A stretch of 64,000 nt of DNA, taken from contig JANXAG010000006.1 in the NCBI GenBank assembly GCA_025062375.1, positions 9,956 through 73,955 on the forward strand. The letters run 5' to 3'. The notes beneath the pieces are model-generated. The model searched no databases. It had not been told where the DNA came from and saw only the letters and a program-made list of their open reading frames with translations. The position numbers and the translations under genes were made by a program. This stretch comes from Anaerolineae bacterium. GTDB lineage: Bacteria > Chloroflexota > Anaerolineae > SpSt-600. Positions 27,031-59,935 of the stretch are shown in pieces (positions within the stretch are counted from its first letter, which is position 1; each line of letters starts with the position of its first letter).

Positions 27031-27531
27031 TCATCTGAAGCATATGGACCTATATCCGCATCTATGGCATTTTGAGCTTTCTTTCACTTCTGGCTCCTGG
27101 CCCAGGGTTAAAGTCTTTCGCATCTCTTCCACAATTTTAAGAAGCTCGGCCTTAAGAGCTGGCGTATACTTTACACAAAAATGCCCATCTCGATAAGCTA
27201 TAATGCCGTAAGGGGGGACAAAACCTGTGTTTTCCTCTACAAGGAGACAATAGGCTACGAGCTGAAATACATGAGAAGCATAGGGGGAATGGGGAGAGCG
27301 CCCGGACTTGATTTCCACGGGGATGAATTGGCCTTTTTCCTGGAAAAGGTAATCTGGCCGGCCCACAAGACGATGGCGGGGAGAAAAAAGTTCACGCTCG
27401 CACCGGCTCCATTTCTGCGAATCAGCTATATGAAGTTTCCCGCGAGGTAACCCCATGGCTTTCTTTTTTAAAGTTACCAGGGCTAGAATACCCAGAGCAA
27501 GCAACAACAGCGAAAGCCCCAAAAGAAGCAC
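27031..27531 (-). CDS. Solo Cas4-like RecB-family (PD-(D/E)xK) nuclease with N-terminal TM helix
   Basis: GRPDYL..PVEIKSG..QL.AY; C-terminal CxxCxxxxxC; 20-residue hydrophobic N-terminus; GTG 27531 with GGAGGG SD; no cas1/cas2 nearby. Confidence 0.8.
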   Translation of the reverse strand: MLLLGLSLLLLALGILALVTLKKKAMGLPRGKLHIADSQKWSRCERELFSPRHRLVGRPDYLFQEKGQFIPVEIKSGRSPHSPYASHVFQLVAYCLLVEENTGFVPPYGIIAYRDGHFCVKYTPALKAELLKIVEEMRKTLTLGQEPEVKESSKCHRCGYRSICFR

Positions 27532-28720
27532 GCTTCCCTCCCGCTCCAAATTGCTATTTACTCTACTGCTCGCCTTTATTTTAGCATTAAATGTGACTTT
27601 TACCCAACGTATCTTTACTTCTCGTTTTCCCGGAGCTAACGATTTTTTCTCCCGCTGGGAGGGAGCGAGGGTTTTCTGGCAAGAAGGGCTCAGCCCCTAT
27701 TCCCAGGAAGCCACTCTCTCCATTCAGAGGGGAATCTACGGCAGACCAGCATACCCCTATGAAGATCAGGGCCTGTTCGTTTACCCATTTTATACCGTTT
27801 TCTTTCTTTTCCCGTTAGTATGGTTCCCCTATTCTTGGGTTCAAGCCTTCTGGATGGTGCTTCTGGAATTTTTGTTGCTGACAGGATTTTGGCTTTGTAT
27901 TGATCTGTTCCGGTGGCGTCCTCCCTTGACTCTTCTGGCCCTGACCGGCCTATGGACCATTCTTTTTTACTATCACGCCAGAGCCATAATCCTGGGTCAG
28001 TTTGCTGTGGTGGTTTTCTTTTTCCTGGCTCTTTCCCTTTGGGCTTTAAGTAAGCGCAAGGACTTCTTAGCTGGTGCCTCGCTGGCCCTTACTACTTTTA
28101 AGCCCCAGATGGTTTTCCTGGCTATCCCCTTTCTCCTCCTGTGGTCTGGCTATAAGAAGCGGTGGAGTGTAATTAAAGGTTTCACCGGGGTTATGGCCTT
28201 GCTCTTAGGACTTTCCTGGATTGCGGAACCCCACTGGTTCCAGGGATTTTTAAGCCAGGTCAGAGCTTACCCGGCTTATACGATTTTTGGCTCACCGCTC
28301 TGGATTTTAACTTCTTATTACTTTCCCGCCCTCGGAAAACCAGTTGAAGTCATTCTAACCCTGGCATTGCTTATCCTTCTGGGTTACTTCTGGGCCTTAG
28401 TTCTCAAAACTGAAAACGAATTTGTTTTCCATCAGGCCTTTGGCCTCACCCTCGTGGTGACTAATTTGATAGCTCCTCGCACTGCCACCACTAATTATGT
28501 CGTTTTCCTCATCCCCATCTGCTTTCTCTTTTCTCTTACGCGCCGTCACCTTTGGATTGCCCTGGGGGAAATTTTGAGCCTTCCGGCTTTCTGGGCTCTT
28601 TTTATCCTGACGGTGAAGGGAGATTTTGAACAGCCTCCTATGTATATCCCTCCGCCTTTCATCCTCCTGGCGGCTCTTCTGATTCAAAGCAGCCGCTTTC
28701 GCATGGCTTTCAGGATTTAA
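27455..28720 (+). CDS. GT-C fold polytopic glycosyltransferase (GT87/DUF2029-like); true start probably near 27551
   Basis: NDF..RW, F.YP, GQ, KPQ motifs and many TM helices; the first ~30 codons overlap the divergent cas4-like gene. Confidence 0.75.
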   Translation: MAFFFKVTRARIPRASNNSESPKRSTLPSRSKLLFTLLLAFILALNVTFTQRIFTSRFPGANDFFSRWEGARVFWQEGLSPYSQEATLSIQRGIYGRPAYPYEDQGLFVYPFYTVFFLFPLVWFPYSWVQAFWMVLLEFLLLTGFWLCIDLFRWRPPLTLLALTGLWTILFYYHARAIILGQFAVVVFFFLALSLWALSKRKDFLAGASLALTTFKPQMVFLAIPFLLLWSGYKKRWSVIKGFTGVMALLLGLSWIAEPHWFQGFLSQVRAYPAYTIFGSPLWILTSYYFPALGKPVEVILTLALLILLGYFWALVLKTENEFVFHQAFGLTLVVTNLIAPRTATTNYVVFLIPICFLFSLTRRHLWIALGEILSLPAFWALFILTVKGDFEQPPMYIPPPFILLAALLIQSSRFRMAFRI

Positions 28721-52814: not shown

Positions 52815-54242
52815 ATGCCAATAGAGTTCGGGACCGACGGCTGGAGGGCCGTAATAAGCGATGATTTCACCTTTGAGAACCTCCGCTATGTAGCCCAGGG
52901 CATAGCCGAAGCCTTCGGACCTGGAAGGAAAATCGCCATCGGCTTTGACACCAGATTTCTTTCAGACCGCTACGCTGCAGAAGTGGCCAGAGTGCTGGCC
53001 GCCAATGGGATAACGGTCTACCTTACAAGAACAGATACTCCGACCCCGGTTCTGGCCTTTGCCATTTCCCACCTTAAGGCTGACGGTGGGGTGATGATAA
53101 CCGCAAGCCACAATCCTCCGCGCTACAACGGTGTTAAAGTTAAAGGGCCCTACGGTGAACCCAACAAGGCCTTGGCTAAAAAAGTTGAAGCAATAATAAA
53201 TGCCAACCTTGAGCGTAAAATTCCTCCCCGCCTTGTGGATTACGAAAAGGCCCTAGCTGAAGGAGCGATTGTAAGGTTCGATCCCGCCCCTCCTTACTTC
53301 GAGCACGTAAAGAAGCTGGTGGATTTCTCCCTTATAGCCCAAAGTGGCTTTAAAGTAGTGGTGGACCCCATGTATGGGGCCGGACGAGGGTATATAAAGA
53401 GTCTGCTTACAGAAGCGGGCCTCTCTTCAGTTTTAGAAATAAGGGGAGAAATGAACCCGGGCTTTGGGGGAATCCATCCGGAGCCTATAGCCCGCTATTT
53501 GGAGGCTCTGGTTCAGGCGGTAAGGGAGGGCAGAGATGTAGGCCTTGCCCACGATGGCGATGCCGACCGGATTGGGGCTGTTGACGCTGAAGGGAATTTT
53601 GTGGACCCTCAAAAGATTTTCGCCCTCATACTTCGCTATCTGGTGGAAGAAAAGGGGTGGAAAGGGGCTGTGGTTAAAACCATATCCACCACTATGGCTG
53701 TGGACAGGCTGGCTTCCCGTTACGGCCTGCCTCTCTATGAGACACCTGTTGGCTTCAACTACATAGCTGAGCACATGATCAGCGGAGACGTCCTTATGGG
53801 TGGGGAAGAATCGGGCGGGATGAGCGTGAAAGGCCACATCCCCGAAGGCGATGGAATCCTTATGGGGCTTCTGGTTCTGGAAGCGATGGCAGCCAGTTCA
53901 ATGCCCCTTAAAGCTCTTGTGGAGGACCTGATTTCCGATCTTGGGCCTCTTCATTACGCCAGGAAAGATATTCCTTTGGAGAAGCCATGCTCAAAGAAAG
54001 CCCTCACCGAAGCTCTTAAAGCTTCAGTTCCCTCCCGGATAGCCGGGGTAGAGGTTAAAGGGATAAGCGATCTGGATGGTTTCAAATACTTCCTGGGTGA
54101 AGAAGGCTGGCTTCTCGTAAGGCCATCAGGGACAGAACCTCTCTTGCGGATTTACGCTGAAGCTGTAGACCATGTCCTGCTAAGGGCTTTCTTAGATGAA
54201 GGGGAGAAACTGGGCCTTAAAGCCCTCGAGGCTGGACTTTAA
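52815..54242 (+). CDS. Phosphoglucomutase/phosphomannomutase
   Basis: FGTDGWR, TASHNP, DGDADR, GGEESGG, RPSGTEP. Confidence 0.95.
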   Translation: MPIEFGTDGWRAVISDDFTFENLRYVAQGIAEAFGPGRKIAIGFDTRFLSDRYAAEVARVLAANGITVYLTRTDTPTPVLAFAISHLKADGGVMITASHNPPRYNGVKVKGPYGEPNKALAKKVEAIINANLERKIPPRLVDYEKALAEGAIVRFDPAPPYFEHVKKLVDFSLIAQSGFKVVVDPMYGAGRGYIKSLLTEAGLSSVLEIRGEMNPGFGGIHPEPIARYLEALVQAVREGRDVGLAHDGDADRIGAVDAEGNFVDPQKIFALILRYLVEEKGWKGAVVKTISTTMAVDRLASRYGLPLYETPVGFNYIAEHMISGDVLMGGEESGGMSVKGHIPEGDGILMGLLVLEAMAASSMPLKALVEDLISDLGPLHYARKDIPLEKPCSKKALTEALKASVPSRIAGVEVKGISDLDGFKYFLGEEGWLLVRPSGTEPLLRIYAEAVDHVLLRAFLDEGEKLGLKALEAGL

Positions 54243-55150
54243 ATAGGTAGCTGACCCATTACTTCTCGCAATCTTTCTAGGGATTTTATGGCTTCAGGGA
54301 TAGTTAACTCAAAGATGATCGGCCCTTCAAAGTTTACCTTTTTCAAGGAGGAGAAGAAATCCTCCAGGGGGACTTCCCCTTCTCCGAGGGGCAGGTGATC
54401 GGCCCAGCGAGCGGTTCCGTCGGGCTCAAGCCTGAACCAGGCATCGTGCAGGTGGACCTCTTTGAGGCGGGGTAAGCATTTAGCCAGAGCCTCGTGGAAA
54501 TCCACCGGGCCGGGCATACGGGCAAAGACATGCCCGGTATCAAAGCAAACGGAAAGGTCAAACTCCTCTGCCAGGCCGAGGGTCAAGTCCAAAGGGAACT
54601 GGATGGTTTCTACTGCCAAGGCTCTGGGTGGGAGGTTTGTCCGTTCAAGAATCTCCTCAATGCTTCGGGCAGCATTGCGCTGGAAAAGCAGCATAAGGAG
54701 GGGGCGGGCCAGGTCAGGTATGGAAGGTGATGTGAAGAACTCGGTAGCGAGGGGGCCTGTAGCGTGGAAGACATAGACCTCTGGCTCCAGAGGTGCGAAA
54801 CGCAGGATTGCATCCACCATAACGTCTACTGCTGCTTTTCTGACTTCCTCAAAGGGGCTTGAGGGCTCAAGGGACCACAGGGGAAGGTGAACAGTGTAGC
54901 TTAATCCCAGGCTTTCTTTAAAATCCATAAGGCGCTTGAGAGTGGGGACACCGAAGCTATGGGGGAAGAAAATATTGAGGTCGGTATTGAGCTCGAGGAG
55001 CCGGAATCCGTAACTGGTGATGCGCTCCACCATGGCTGGCACGTCAAGGGGGGGCAACTTTTCTGGAAGGCCGCCGGCTCCGGTCAAAAGTGGTGCGGCC
55101 ATTTCCAAAAGAAGGGGTTCCTGAATAATTTCAATCCCCAGCCGGACCAT
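54239..55150 (-). CDS. AP endonuclease 2 / xylose isomerase-like TIM barrel (possibly CbiR-like phosphodiesterase)
   Basis: VHLP, VFH, AVE, CFDTGH, VHLHD, DHLPLG.G, IFE metal motifs. Confidence 0.75.
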   Translation of the reverse strand: MVRLGIEIIQEPLLLEMAAPLLTGAGGLPEKLPPLDVPAMVERITSYGFRLLELNTDLNIFFPHSFGVPTLKRLMDFKESLGLSYTVHLPLWSLEPSSPFEEVRKAAVDVMVDAILRFAPLEPEVYVFHATGPLATEFFTSPSIPDLARPLLMLLFQRNAARSIEEILERTNLPPRALAVETIQFPLDLTLGLAEEFDLSVCFDTGHVFARMPGPVDFHEALAKCLPRLKEVHLHDAWFRLEPDGTARWADHLPLGEGEVPLEDFFSSLKKVNFEGPIIFELTIPEAIKSLERLREVMGQLPI

Positions 55151-55360
55151 ATTTGCCTCCGATTTTGTTTTCTGGTTTCATGATACTACGAGTGAAGATT
55201 TAGGGCAAATCCCGTTTGCGGGCTGATCTGCCCCTGGTTTACAGGGGTAACTGGGCAAATGGTAAAGCTCTTTTTAGGAGAAAATTTCGCCCAATTAAGA
55301 TCTTTTCCCGGTAACCGGGAGTCGTTAGACAGGAAATCCATTCCTCGTCCCTTACCGGAT

Positions 55361-55390
55361 TTGACAGTAGAGGAAAAATGGATGTAAAAT
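55361..55390 (+). promoter_or_regulatory. Promoter in the AT-rich CRISPR-leader-like region
   Basis: TTGACA-18 nt-TAAAAT with TG extension. Confidence 0.6.
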
Positions 55391-55454
55391 AAAGCTGGAT
55401 TTTGCACTAAAGCCTTTAACAGACTACGAACCTTAACAATTAAATATGCCTTTG

Positions 55455-55775
55455 ATTGTAATCGAACCAGAGTGGGATTGAAAGGTGTGGCGGTGGGAGT
55501 CATCTACTCCTACCGTTTTAGTCAGAGTAGGCTTGAAAGCTCGACCTCCCTTCGCCTGCACTGTAAAATCAACTGCTGTTATGGTCGAGTTAGAGAGGGC
55601 TTGATTGATGATTCATGTATCTTGTCGTAATCGCACCAGAGTGAGTTTGAAGGGAAAGGTTTCATTCCTCCTGGCCCACAAAATCTTCACCGTAATTGCC
55701 CCATAAAGAGGTTGAATCCTGTTAGGGCCTCGGCTGCTTTATTTGGTCGTAATTGCAGCATAGTAGAATTTAATG
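55455..55775 (+). CRISPR. Degenerate orphan CRISPR array, six 30-bp-class repeats
   Basis: R1 ATTGTAATCGAACCAGAGTGGGATTGAAAG (55455); R4 GTCGTAATCGCACCAGAGTGAGTTTGAAGG (55624, 24/30 to R1); R2 55515 (25 bp, internal deletion), R3 55578, R5 55689, R6 55746 (about 20-21/30 to R1 or R4); unique spacers of 30, 38, 16, 35 and 27 bp. Confidence 0.7.
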
Positions 55776-55801
55776 GGTTCGTTCTTTTCACAGGAGTTGC
55801 T

Positions 55802-58033
55802 ATGACCGGAAAACTTGGGCTAAAATTTTGGGGTGAAAAGTTTGCAGTTTTATTTTCGGCTTTGTTGGTTTTAGTGGTTATGCTCAGCTCTGGTTGCAGC
55901 CCAGCATTATCGGAAAAAGGCCAGCTCCTTCCCCATCATGCTGCCAACTATAGGGAAACCGTTTCTATTTCCAACGATCGTGTGACCATCTCTTTCAGTT
56001 TGCCCACAGGGTTGATCTCTTTTGCGGCCAGAGGGCGGGAGGTTTTTGAAGGTGCATTTTTCGGCGCCTTAATAAACGGAGAGGAATGGGTAAGTTCTCA
56101 ATTTACCTGGGAAGAGTGGAGCAAAATTACCATAGCCGACGCTTTGGGCCACGGTAATAGCCTAATTGTTATCAGCACGGAGAACAGGGGAATCAGGTGG
56201 GTATTGGAGATCACTCTATACGAAGGCAAGGATTATGCAATCTTCCAGCACACACTGACCAATACAGGTCAACAAGCTGTAAAGGTAGGTGGTCTGAAGC
56301 CTCTTGCTGTGGAGGCCAACGGCAAATTCTCCAGAGATTTCTCCTTAAGAGGGGCCGTGGTTTTCATTAACGGTTATACCAGCGTCGGCTACAGGGGAGT
56401 GGTGCCTGTATTGCCTGTTCCCCACGTGGCAATACCCGGCTCCTTGCCCGATGGCACAGGTAACCTCCGTTTCGGTGATTACTCCGGGTGGTGGGTGCAT
56501 GCCCTCTGGATCAGGAACAGGGGAATAGGGTTTATTGCCGGTGCACTTACAGCTGAGAAGTGGAAGACTTTTATTGATTTACGCCAGAATCTTCTTACCG
56601 GTAGAATATCCAGCTGGAGCGTGAACAACCTGGGCGATGCGCTGCTCCCTCCAGGTCAAGCTTTTGCTTCGGAAAAGATTATGATAGGGGTGTGCACCAA
56701 CCCTCTGACCTGCCTGGATGAGTACGGAGCGGCTGTGGGAAAGGTTAACCAGGTTAAGCCAGCCCCCGCTTCCCTCGGATGGTGCTCTTGGCCTTACTAT
56801 TACCGGAAGATCACCGAAACAGAGGTGTTGCGCAACGCTGCTTTTATGAAAGAAAGGCTCTCTCCCGCTTATAAATACGTCCTGATAGATAGCGGGTGGT
56901 TTACTTTCCGCGGTGATTGGAAGGCTAATGAGAAGTTCCCTGAAGGGATGAAGGCCACTGCTCAGAAGATCCGCAACCTGGGGCTGAGGCCAGGCCTGTG
57001 GTTCGCCCCTTTCCTGGTGGATAAGGGGTCAGCCCTTTTGCACCAGCATCCCGATTGGTTTGTGAAAAATGAGGATGGTTCGCTTTATGTTTATAAGCAA
57101 GACCCAGGAGCCCCGGAAAGGTACGTACTGGATGGTTCCCACCCTGAAGTGCAGGCGTGGCTGGAAAAGCTTTTCAGCACCGTAGTCAATGAATGGGGAT
57201 ACGAGTATCTGAAGCTGGATTTCCTACAAGCGGGCGCGGTGGAAGGCAAAAGATATAACCCTGCTGTAACTTCCCTGGAAGCTCTGCGCCAGGGCCTGCG
57301 GGCGATCAGAAGGGGAGCCGGCGATAAGACTTATATCCAGCAGGCTATAGGCCCATGGCTGGCGCCGGTGGGGATCCTCAACGAAAGCCGCATGGGCATG
57401 GATACAGAATTTCGCCTGAGCGCTGGCCTAACGACTAGCGATATTCCATGGCTCAACTGGCAATACGCCACCTGGTATATCCGGAACAACATAGCTGGCT
57501 ACTTCGCCAGGGGCAATCTTTTCAATGTGCAGTCAGGCGAAGGGATCAGACTTGGACCCTGGTCTCTTCAAGAGACGAAGACTCTGCTGGCTACTTACGC
57601 CTTGAACGGCAACCTGTGGCTTGCTGGGGATTTGACAGCCTTGTCCCCGGAACAGATAGACTTGCTGAACAATGAGGCCATTATCGCTTTGAGCACTTCT
57701 AATTTAAGGGTCAAGCCCGCAGATCTTTTTGAAAGGCCGGATTTCCTGGCAGCCTTTGGCGCCATGAATGTGTTTGGCGATAGCCAGCGTTTAACTTACG
57801 GTAATTTACCCACTGTCTGGTATGCTCCTGTAGAAGGCTCACTGCTGGTCGGCCTGTTCAATTGGGGGGATCGCAGGACTACAGTAACTTTACCCCTGGC
57901 TAAGATAGGGCTGGATCCAGATAGAAGGTATTCCTTTTTTGACCTCTGGACCGGCCAGAAAGTAGGAGAATATCGGGGAAGCATTACTATACCGATTGAC
58001 GCTCATTCTCATATGCTGCTGAGGATAGAATGA
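55802..58033 (+). CDS. GH36-family alpha-galactosidase-like lipoprotein
   Basis: LSSGC lipobox; GWCSW, IDSGW, KFPEGMK, GLWFAPF, YLKLDF (nucleophile), SRMGMD; ATG 55802 with AGGAG SD. Confidence 0.85.
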   Translation: MTGKLGLKFWGEKFAVLFSALLVLVVMLSSGCSPALSEKGQLLPHHAANYRETVSISNDRVTISFSLPTGLISFAARGREVFEGAFFGALINGEEWVSSQFTWEEWSKITIADALGHGNSLIVISTENRGIRWVLEITLYEGKDYAIFQHTLTNTGQQAVKVGGLKPLAVEANGKFSRDFSLRGAVVFINGYTSVGYRGVVPVLPVPHVAIPGSLPDGTGNLRFGDYSGWWVHALWIRNRGIGFIAGALTAEKWKTFIDLRQNLLTGRISSWSVNNLGDALLPPGQAFASEKIMIGVCTNPLTCLDEYGAAVGKVNQVKPAPASLGWCSWPYYYRKITETEVLRNAAFMKERLSPAYKYVLIDSGWFTFRGDWKANEKFPEGMKATAQKIRNLGLRPGLWFAPFLVDKGSALLHQHPDWFVKNEDGSLYVYKQDPGAPERYVLDGSHPEVQAWLEKLFSTVVNEWGYEYLKLDFLQAGAVEGKRYNPAVTSLEALRQGLRAIRRGAGDKTYIQQAIGPWLAPVGILNESRMGMDTEFRLSAGLTTSDIPWLNWQYATWYIRNNIAGYFARGNLFNVQSGEGIRLGPWSLQETKTLLATYALNGNLWLAGDLTALSPEQIDLLNNEAIIALSTSNLRVKPADLFERPDFLAAFGAMNVFGDSQRLTYGNLPTVWYAPVEGSLLVGLFNWGDRRTTVTLPLAKIGLDPDRRYSFFDLWTGQKVGEYRGSITIPIDAHSHMLLRIE

Positions 58034-58246: not shown

Positions 58247-59533
58247 ATGGCTTATCCGATAAGGCGCTGGCCCGTTGTGGTCATCTTTTTTTCTTTCATG
58301 CTCCTGCATCAGATGGATAAATTGCTCATCGGGCCTCTGACTACTCCTATTATGGAGACTTTCCGGATCAATGAGGCCCAGATGGGGGCAGTTTTCAGCG
58401 GAGCCCTGCTAGTAGGAGGCTTGCTTTACCCTGTCTGGGGTTACCTTTACGACCGGTTCGCCCGGCCTAAATTACTGGCCCTGGCTGCCTTTATCTGGGG
58501 TTCCACCACCTGGTTAAGTGCCCTTGCTCCTAATTACAGCACCTTTCTGGTCACCAGAGCTTCCACTGGCATAGATGATTCCAGCTACCCCGGGCTCCAT
58601 AGCTTGATATCCGATTACTTTGAGCCTGGCATACGGGGTAAAATATACGGATTGTTGCAGCTGGCCGCCCCCCTGGGTTACCTGCTGGGCATGGTCCTGG
58701 CTTTCAGTTTGCGGGATGTTATCGGCTGGCGGGGTGTGTATTATATAACCGGGGCCATGGGCATAATTCTGGCTCTGGCTATATACCGCTGGGTTATAGA
58801 AGTGCCACGGGGTCGGGCGGAGCCGGAAATGGCTGGCCTGGAGCAGATAAGCGTTTATAAATTTGACCCCAAGTTAGCTCGTGGTCTTTTCCGCAAGAAG
58901 AGCCTGGTCCTTCTCTACCTTCAAGGTTTCTTCGGCGTTTGGCCCTGGCAGGTCATCACTTACTGGTTTTTCCGCTATCTGGAGACGGAGCGGAAATATA
59001 GTGCGGATGTAATAATGATAACTATGCTGGTGGCTGTCCTGGTTCTGGCCTCCGGGTATTTTATAGGCGGCGCTATAGGCGATTTCTTGTTCAGGCGAAC
59101 CCGCAGGGGGCGTATTATTGTTTGCACTGCTGGTGTTTTTTTGGGTTTAATTTTCCTGGTTCTGACTATGAAGACGCCGCCGGAAAATTACGGCACTTTT
59201 ATGGTTTTCTTGATTTTAACTGCTCTCTTCATACCCTTTGCGGCACCTAACACCCTTTCCACTGTTTATGATGTTACTGAGCCTGAGGTACGGAGCACTG
59301 CTGTTGCCATTTCTAACTTCATAGAACAAGGAGGCACGGCTGTAGCACCATTCCTGGCCGGGCTTATCGCCACTGTATCATCTCTGGGCGATGCCATTCT
59401 CATTATTTGCACTGCGGGGTGGCTGGTGTGTGGTACTATCTTTCCCCTGGTGGGCTGGCTGCTGCCCAGGGATATGGATGCCCTGCGTCAGTTAATGCGC
59501 CAGAGGGCGGAAATGGAGATGGCACGAGGATAA
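58247..59533 (+). CDS. MFS transporter (spinster/ACS-like, probable sugar uptake)
   Basis: WGYLYDRFAR motif A, RASTGI, LISDYF..RGK..G, GAIGDFL. Confidence 0.88.
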   Translation: MAYPIRRWPVVVIFFSFMLLHQMDKLLIGPLTTPIMETFRINEAQMGAVFSGALLVGGLLYPVWGYLYDRFARPKLLALAAFIWGSTTWLSALAPNYSTFLVTRASTGIDDSSYPGLHSLISDYFEPGIRGKIYGLLQLAAPLGYLLGMVLAFSLRDVIGWRGVYYITGAMGIILALAIYRWVIEVPRGRAEPEMAGLEQISVYKFDPKLARGLFRKKSLVLLYLQGFFGVWPWQVITYWFFRYLETERKYSADVIMITMLVAVLVLASGYFIGGAIGDFLFRRTRRGRIIVCTAGVFLGLIFLVLTMKTPPENYGTFMVFLILTALFIPFAAPNTLSTVYDVTEPEVRSTAVAISNFIEQGGTAVAPFLAGLIATVSSLGDAILIICTAGWLVCGTIFPLVGWLLPRDMDALRQLMRQRAEMEMARG

Positions 59534-59935
59534 GTGGGGTTAGCAGTTTTTGAGGTTTCTGGGGGCACATCCCCCAGGCCCCCTGCCATGGGGCAAGCCC
59601 CCTGGACCCCCGAATTTTTCCCGCCCTCGTGGGCTTTGGGTTTGCCACGGTTTTGGGTCCCACTCGTGGGCAAGATGCAGGAGATGGCTGATCGCTCCCT
59701 TTTGGGGTTTCTGGGGGCACATCCCCAAGACCCCCTGCCAGGGGGCAAGCCCCCTGGACCCCCGAATTTTTCCCACCCTCGTGGGCTTGGGGTTTGCCAC
59801 GGTTTTGGGTCCCACTCGTGGGCGGGATGTAGGAGATGGCTGATCGCTCCCTTTTGAGGTTTTCGGGGGATGCCCCTAAAGTCTCAGGGAATGGAGGGTT
59901 TTTTCCTCACTTTCGTGGGTGGGATGCGGGTATTC
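59534..59935. repeat. Tandem ~152-bp multi-hairpin repeat, about 2.5 units, same family and orientation as 1121-1440
   Basis: GATCGCTCCC at 59690 and 59842; same GGGGCAAGCCCCCTGGACCCCC and CCCACTCGTGGG motifs; last unit decays. Confidence 0.85.

Follow-up and report, generated by a model that had tools for sequence, protein, structure and literature searches.

Type I-B CRISPR systems possess repeats such as that of Haloferax volcanii, which is of the same general kind as the 30-nt repeat family with a 3' ATTGAAAN handle treated here. RliB of Listeria is an example of an orphan array. Another one is CRISPR2 of Enterococcus faecalis, which is able to function with Cas9 provided in trans (PMC4580645). 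In this study we analysed a stretch of 64,000 nucleotides from a hot-spring Anaerolineae genome (GCA_025062375.1, contig JANXAG010000006.1, positions 9,956 to 73,955), hereafter the window, which hosts a decayed CRISPR array in a 651-bp gap between divergent genes (55151-55801), ahead of a putative sugar operon for a GH36-like alpha-galactosidase and a transporter of the major facilitator superfamily (GH36-MFS). The locus resembles CRISPR2 and RliB in the presence of a leader, the lack of adjacent cas genes and the position among housekeeping genes. In contrast to the near-identical repeats and regular spacers of these orphan arrays, its repeats match an intact counterpart at only 17-25 of 30 positions, carry indels and enclose irregular spacers, thereby indicating a later stage of decay. 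Regulatory mini-arrays contain exactly two repeats, are located in or beside cas loci and harbor a spacer with partial complementarity to a nearby promoter, and ectopic repeat-like sequences are known as well (PMC10120712). Our locus shares with CreA and the mini-arrays the degenerate repeat-like sequences around short spacers, but it comprises six copies and is situated away from cas loci, with no type I-B cas homologue in the 64-kb window. Spacer matches within the window are of 12 nt and at chance level. The locus belongs to the orphan arrays at an advanced stage of decay. Orphan arrays as such, like degenerate repeats, are already well known, and the real novelty is limited to the idea of a putative co-option by the adjacent operon.

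Based on the sequence comparisons presented below, we consider it rather probable that the locus is the decayed remnant of a type I-B-associated array, an orphan fossil whose repeat family is indigenous to this lineage of hot-spring Anaerolineae. Six copies of a 30-nt unit (R1 to R6) are located on one strand between 55455 and 55775 with 3' ends at 55484, 55539, 55607, 55653, 55718 and 55775, and their column consensus is GTCGTAATYGMACCAGAGTGGGNTTGAAAG. Copy identities were obtained by semiglobal alignment to GTCGCAATCGCACCAGAGTGGGATTGAAAC, the intact repeat of a related genome (locus L112), with 3000 random 45-mers of the window as null distribution. Independently, a position weight matrix (PWM), for which 30 different repeats were taken from true arrays of other genomes, was scanned over ~128,000 positions of both strands. 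The leader and the repeats comprise the following features:

55290-55335, plus strand: distal leader element, a block conserved with the L112 leader that folds at -11.3 kcal/mol
55361-55390, plus strand: CRISPR leader promoter (TTGACA, 18-nt spacer, TAAAAT), 11/12 consensus match, aligned to L112
55430-55447, plus strand: leader-end block ACCTTAACAATTAAATAT, 17/18 identical to L112 1875-1892
55455-55484, plus strand: repeat R1 ATTGTAATCGAACCAGAGTGGGATTGAAAG, the best-preserved copy, PWM 36.8 bits (rank 1), 25/30 to the L112 repeat
55510-55539 (effective 55515-55539), plus strand: repeat R2, 18/30 to the L112 repeat with a 5-nt gap
55578-55607 (effective 55584-55607), plus strand: repeat R3, the least preserved of the six and internally deleted, 17/30 with gaps
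55624-55653, plus strand: repeat R4 GTCGTAATCGCACCAGAGTGAGTTTGAAGG, PWM 24.4 bits (rank 2), 25/30 to the L112 repeat
55689-55718, plus strand: repeat R5 ACCGTAATTGCCCCATAAAGAGGTTGAATC, PWM 3.2 bits (top ~8 of 128,000), 19/30 to the L112 repeat
55746-55775, plus strand: repeat R6 GTCGTAATTGCAGCATAGTAGAATTTAATG, PWM 16.1 bits (rank 3), 21/30 to the L112 repeat

The three best PWM positions of the whole scan are R1, R4 and R6, and R5 and R2 range within the top ~10. Even with a matrix restricted to columns that were not fixed by the search pattern, R1 is still ranked first in the window. The alignment scores of R1 to R6 amount to 40, 13, 6, 40, 16 and 24, compared with a 99th percentile of 11 and a maximum of 15 for the random 45-mers, and the 17-mer core occurs three times where 0.17 occurrences are expected. 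The locus hence represents more than a chance assembly, and its repeats are derived from CRISPR. The original prediction of six copies of a 30-nt family is thus confirmed by PWM and alignment with the exception of R3, whose score lies inside the null range and which was accepted solely by its register in the series. At the locus, Tandem Repeats Finder (minimum score 30) detected no array and Rfam (E-value mode) returned only chance matches under the gathering scores, which documents that standard finders miss the array, as had been anticipated.

The copies differ in their state of preservation. R1, R4 and R6 share a T at position 5, and R1 and R4 also a G at position 30, thus indicating that the ancestral repeat of this array was probably GTCGTAATCGCACCAGAGTGGGATTGAAAG. 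Three positions separate R1 and R4 from this sequence, eight R6 and about ten R5; R2 and R3 deviate further and contain deletions. In R2, which aligns best with a gap of 5 nt, the 3' half is intact (CAGAGTAGGCTTGAAAG) whereas the 5' half has decayed. Near-identity among repeats is accordingly lacking, with two copies showing internal deletions. The five spacers measure about 25-30, 38-44, 16, 35 and 27 nt, in agreement with the irregularity proposed earlier and in contrast to the 35-38 nt of L112. No pair of copies is identical, which argues against a recent spacer acquisition duplicating R1. Spacer searches of phages and plasmids (distant mode) yielded only chance matches with an E-value of 0.9 in the former and none in the latter, and local sequences gave only chance matches of 12-16 nt in the window (12 nt) and the other loci examined; targets beyond chance level were therefore not found in any of these sources, as is expected for this degree of decay. 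At 10-40% decay, a spacer is not expected to retain an exact 20-mer. The locus illustrates late CRISPR decay, with the leader promoter, the junction and two repeats still recognizable and the remainder eroded.

To trace the wider distribution of the repeat, 185,579 species genomes were searched by pattern for the loose core CAGAGTNNNNTTGAAR in two tandem copies. The locus of the window itself was not among the results, hence the genome of its own species is not part of this collection. The scan revealed 110 stretches, nearly all of which are long regular arrays whose 30-nt repeat reads GTTTTAATCGCACCAGAGTGGAATTGAAAT/C. The arrays of three family loci (L008, L036, L037) adjoin genes for Cas1b of the HMARI type (431-450 bits), Cas4, Cas3, Cas5b and Cas7/Cst2. 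Judged from these matches, the repeats constitute a true and widespread CRISPR family that is type I-B-associated, an assignment of the subtype that relies on the loci of other genomes. Our locus has the 30-nt length, the 3' handle as well as the core AATCGNACCAGAGTGG of this family; unlike the family arrays, which have cas1b, cas4, cas3, cas5b and cas7 on their flanks, it possesses no linked cas genes.

The closest repeat, GTCGCAATCGCACCAGAGTGGGATTGAAAC, agrees with the consensus of our six copies at 28 of 30 positions and stems from the metagenome-assembled genome (MAG) H70_729 of the Anaerolineae (GCA_034432815.1, contig DAOUBN010000183, loci L112/L118). This MAG also encodes a GH36 homologue (L116) that is 75% identical to the one in the window, which indicates that it is a relative of the window's organism, and a related repeat is accordingly present in a related genome. 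The H70_729 array has a homologous leader, with the promoter and the junction block at equal offset, and lacks cas genes across 8 kb on the leader side, as is the case here. It differs from ours by its eight identical repeats with unique 35-38-nt spacers plus one further repeat, and by its genomic context beside M42 peptidases. The array is itself interrupted, since the eight identical repeats are followed by ~265 nt of non-repeat sequence and a ninth repeat with a T end (L112 2401-2696, at the end of the contig).

The leader provides a second line of evidence. Its GC content is 36.5% compared with 51.2% for the window, and a leader-only local alignment to L112 reaches a score of 31, a value that none of 2000 shuffles attained (mean 16.3, maximum 29). 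The PWM and alignment scores of the repeats likewise exceed the background of the window by a wide margin. The distal block TTTCCCGGTAACCGGGAGT..AGAC aligns with TTTTCCGGCGATCGGGGGT..AGAC of L112 and contains the hairpin CCCGG-TAA-CCGGG (~55306-55320). Further downstream, the alignment covers the -35 region TTGACAG, the -10 region GTAAAAT (GTATAAT in L112) and, between both hexamers, a GGAAAA, in support of the AT-rich leader with a near-consensus promoter that had been claimed. An 18-nt block common to both leaders (ACCTTAACAATTRAATAT) is separated from the first repeat by 7 nt in each of them; this leader-end block likely represents the leader-repeat junction signal and is absent from 36 of 36 other family leaders. 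The orientation is canonical, with the leader followed by repeats that terminate with ATTGAAAG, all directed toward GH36. The fossil nature of the array, as originally proposed, is thus documented by the CRISPR family repeat, the homologous leader and the decay. The -35 box is surrounded by an inverted repeat (ATCCATT...AATGGAT, 55336-55349 / 55370-55383), and the L112 leader likewise exhibits one of different sequence (CCCTTTT...AAAAGGG, ~1786-1796 / 1821-1830). These elements could represent a conserved operator or hairpin at the CRISPR promoter, an anecdotal observation from two sequences.

The genes on both sides of the array allow its position to be placed in an evolutionary context:

54239-55150, minus strand: xylose-isomerase-like TIM-barrel gene (Pfam), the terminal gene of a conserved syntenic block
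55792-58033, plus strand: GH36-like alpha-galactosidase gene with Shine-Dalgarno sequence (Pfam Melibiase, Melibiase_C and GH31 TIM-barrel domains)
58247-59533, plus strand: MFS transporter, second gene of the putative operon (Pfam MFS_1, E 3e-43)

The left-flank block comprises genes for an integrase, PNP, a hypothetical protein, Rrf2, PGM and the CbiR-like protein with 81-86% protein identity in the relatives L120 to L123. CbiR (cobamide remodeling phosphodiesterase) is the NCBI name for Thermoflexus and Anaerolineae homologues that are 56-65% identical to the product of the xylose-isomerase-like gene. In the left-flank relatives (L120, L121/122, L123), a co-directional gene abuts the CbiR-like gene, and neither an array nor GH36 is present. 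The GH36 relatives (L113 to L116; 67-78% identity) have other neighbours, short upstream regions and no array, and PWM scans over the left-flank and GH36 loci of the relatives revealed no matches. Nucleotide homology to the relatives ends at 55161-55210 and restarts at 55962; the array is where the conserved block terminates, and the neighbours of GH36-MFS differ in all relatives examined. The absence of the array from the compared loci together with the gap in homology shows that the fossil is located at a lineage-specific synteny breakpoint. In uncultured lineages, such fossils can serve as markers of former CRISPR loci and of breakpoints of rearrangement. Regarding GH36 itself, the ATG is located at 55802 and the Shine-Dalgarno sequence AGGAG at 55792-55796, and the homologues have N-termini of comparable length. 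The N-terminus (55802-55900) harbors a hydrophobic signal peptide with an LSSGC end reminiscent of lipoprotein signals, which suggests a cell-surface location of the glycosidase. Within the gap, a minus-strand open reading frame of 105 aa (55186-55503) was rejected as a gene, as it is without a Pfam match and uncalled in the NCBI assembly.

The lack of an adjacent cas operon, one element of the original prediction, was substantiated by Pfam annotation of the flanking genes (~9-10 kb upstream, 6-8 kb downstream), which include no cas genes, and by tblastn searches with Cas1b, Cas2, Cas3, Cas4, Cas5b and Cas7, for which neither the 64-kb window nor L001 yielded a match. A solo open reading frame of the Cas4-family / PD-(D/E)XK nuclease type (27031-27549, minus strand, 172 aa; Pfam Cas_Cas4, E 3e-13) is located 28 kb from the array without cas neighbours, and tblastn shows no similarity to the I-B Cas4 of the family loci.

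The scenario that we propose for the fossil starts with an ancestral array with the repeat GTCGTAATCGCACCAGAGTGGGATTGAAAG and a leader of its own, whose repeats have subsequently lost their identity, with indels altering the lengths of repeats and spacers. The remnant lies at the lineage-specific breakpoint between the CbiR-like block and GH36-MFS without nearby cas genes, and its immunity function is presumably gone. The leader promoter at 55361-55390, which is still near-consensus, probably fires and would give rise to a non-coding transcript, part of which may read through into GH36-MFS.

A number of findings weigh against the interpretation as an orphan fossil. R1 and R4 retain seven of the eight inner hairpin pairs, like many true family repeats, and residual processing by Cas6b is therefore conceivable given the enzyme in the cell; both would be plausible cleavage sites if a cognate Cas6b is encoded elsewhere in the genome. 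Hairpin conservation as such was rejected as a criterion, with true family repeats spanning -1.9 to -10.3 kcal/mol. The window is 99.9% identical to contig JAVQUD010000005.1 of GCA_033580795.1 and is also matched by hot-spring metagenome runs, and all strain-level copies found are identical at the locus, so that selection on the region is not measurable. Logan contigs of four hot-spring runs, compared with the L112 leader and array, comprise 99, 506, 325 and 53 repeat-bearing contigs (95-99% alike), and the run with 99 of them contains the window locus at full identity. Some repeat-bearing contigs of this run have a depth of 5.5-10.7, near the 5.4-6.9 of the organism, and the similar depth together with the L112-type repeats implies that this genome may itself encode a cognate system. 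Live arrays of the repeat family thus abound in the community, with contigs that are not assignable to the window's genome. Metagenome contigs were scanned once for the combination of leader and repeat and once for the lineage-type repeat, with 0 matches in both cases, and the loose-end sequences of array-bearing contigs from one run have no match among the loci examined.

A different explanation, which we regard as unlikely and nevertheless the most serious one, is an exaptation in which the leader promoter serves as the main promoter of GH36-MFS and the array as a ~400-nt 5' untranslated region (UTR) that is maybe trimmed by Cas6b at R1, R4 or R6. The promoter is on the strand of GH36, matches the consensus at 11 of 12 positions and is retained relative to L112, and R6 ends 26 nt upstream of the ATG, precisely as predicted (55775 and 55802), with a good Shine-Dalgarno sequence. 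The consensus terminator scan of 55000-56000 found none, and the GH36 upstream regions of the relatives are unrelated to ours, hence no inherited promoter is evident here. The original statement that no other clear promoter precedes GH36 agrees with the 9/12 reached by the remaining plus-strand candidates downstream of the leader promoter and upstream of the ATG. A weaker promoter-like site, a possible internal promoter, lies inside the array (55541-55569), and a promoter unlike the sigma-70 consensus might sit anywhere in the array. The retention of the promoter is, moreover, no strong argument for its recruitment. By our own estimate, keeping 11 of 12 positions at 10% divergence has a chance of ~0.66 given the decay of R1 and R4, and the small number of changes in these two repeats implies that it is not statistically remarkable. 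The fold of the whole 5' UTR is equally unremarkable (z -0.6), without an excess of structure, and one local element stands directly 3' of R1 in the path of transcription:

55489-55517, plus strand: hairpin of 12 bp within spacer 1 that precedes UUUAG, terminator-like (-18.3 kcal/mol, z -4.49, 0/200 shuffles; not called by the consensus terminator scan)

According to the predicted fold, this hairpin could curb read-through toward GH36. If the promoter does drive the sugar operon, the locus would clearly exemplify the recruitment of defence-system debris for metabolism. The more specific version of the exaptation, with R1, R4 and R6 still being cut by a Cas6b encoded elsewhere, appears very improbable to us; if true, it would make the expression of the sugar-uptake operon dependent on the CRISPR-Cas status of the cell, or tunable by it.

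Within the preferred reading of an orphan fossil, read-through from the array into GH36 is possible in view of the shared strand and the lack of a consensus terminator. A meaningful contribution to the expression of GH36-MFS is a tentative proposal that we would rather doubt than endorse. We regard read-through as a by-product of the fossil's position rather than as a demonstrated adaptation. Fossils of this kind leave strong orphan promoters aimed into neighbouring genes.

We consider it very improbable that the array functions in trans, either as a small array for a I-B system located elsewhere in the genome or as a CreA/scaRNA-like regulatory mini-array. The near-intact R1 and R4, the abundance of arrays with the same repeat in the same metagenomes and the repeat-like regulatory elements known from I-B systems (PMC10120712) are compatible with such a role. 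However, there are six copies instead of two, no cas locus is present in or near the site as far as the 64-kb window extends, and the spacers of 16, 27 and ~30 nt fall outside the 34-40 nt of the family arrays. The missing targets in phages and plasmids, with 12-nt chance matches only in the window, and the lack of identical copies, hence of any sign of acquisition, point in the same direction. The mini-array or CreA reading, which the original prediction had offered as an option, is consequently disfavoured in the light of copy number, the missing cas locus in the window and the missing spacer targets in phages, plasmids and the window. Finally, a non-CRISPR origin, be it from a cluster arisen by chance or from a tandem or regulatory repeat of unrelated nature, to which the random-range score of R3 alone and the silence of Tandem Repeats Finder and Rfam might be ascribed, has a negligible probability and is effectively refuted by the family arrays, the top three PWM ranks of R1, R4 and R6, the first rank of R1 even on the unfixed columns and the homology of the leader to that of an intact array.

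Apart from the array, we observed a 152-nt composite hairpin repeat family 3' of the MFS stop (59548-59869), with a second occurrence in the window at 1133-1422. It is also present in relatives (L116 123-472, L121 3464-3717), and in the related MAG the hairpin repeat is located immediately 5' of the GH36 homologue. The divergence between the window and JAVQUD010000005.1 starts precisely at this 152-nt repeat, suggesting that either the assembly or a rearrangement has a breakpoint at this position.

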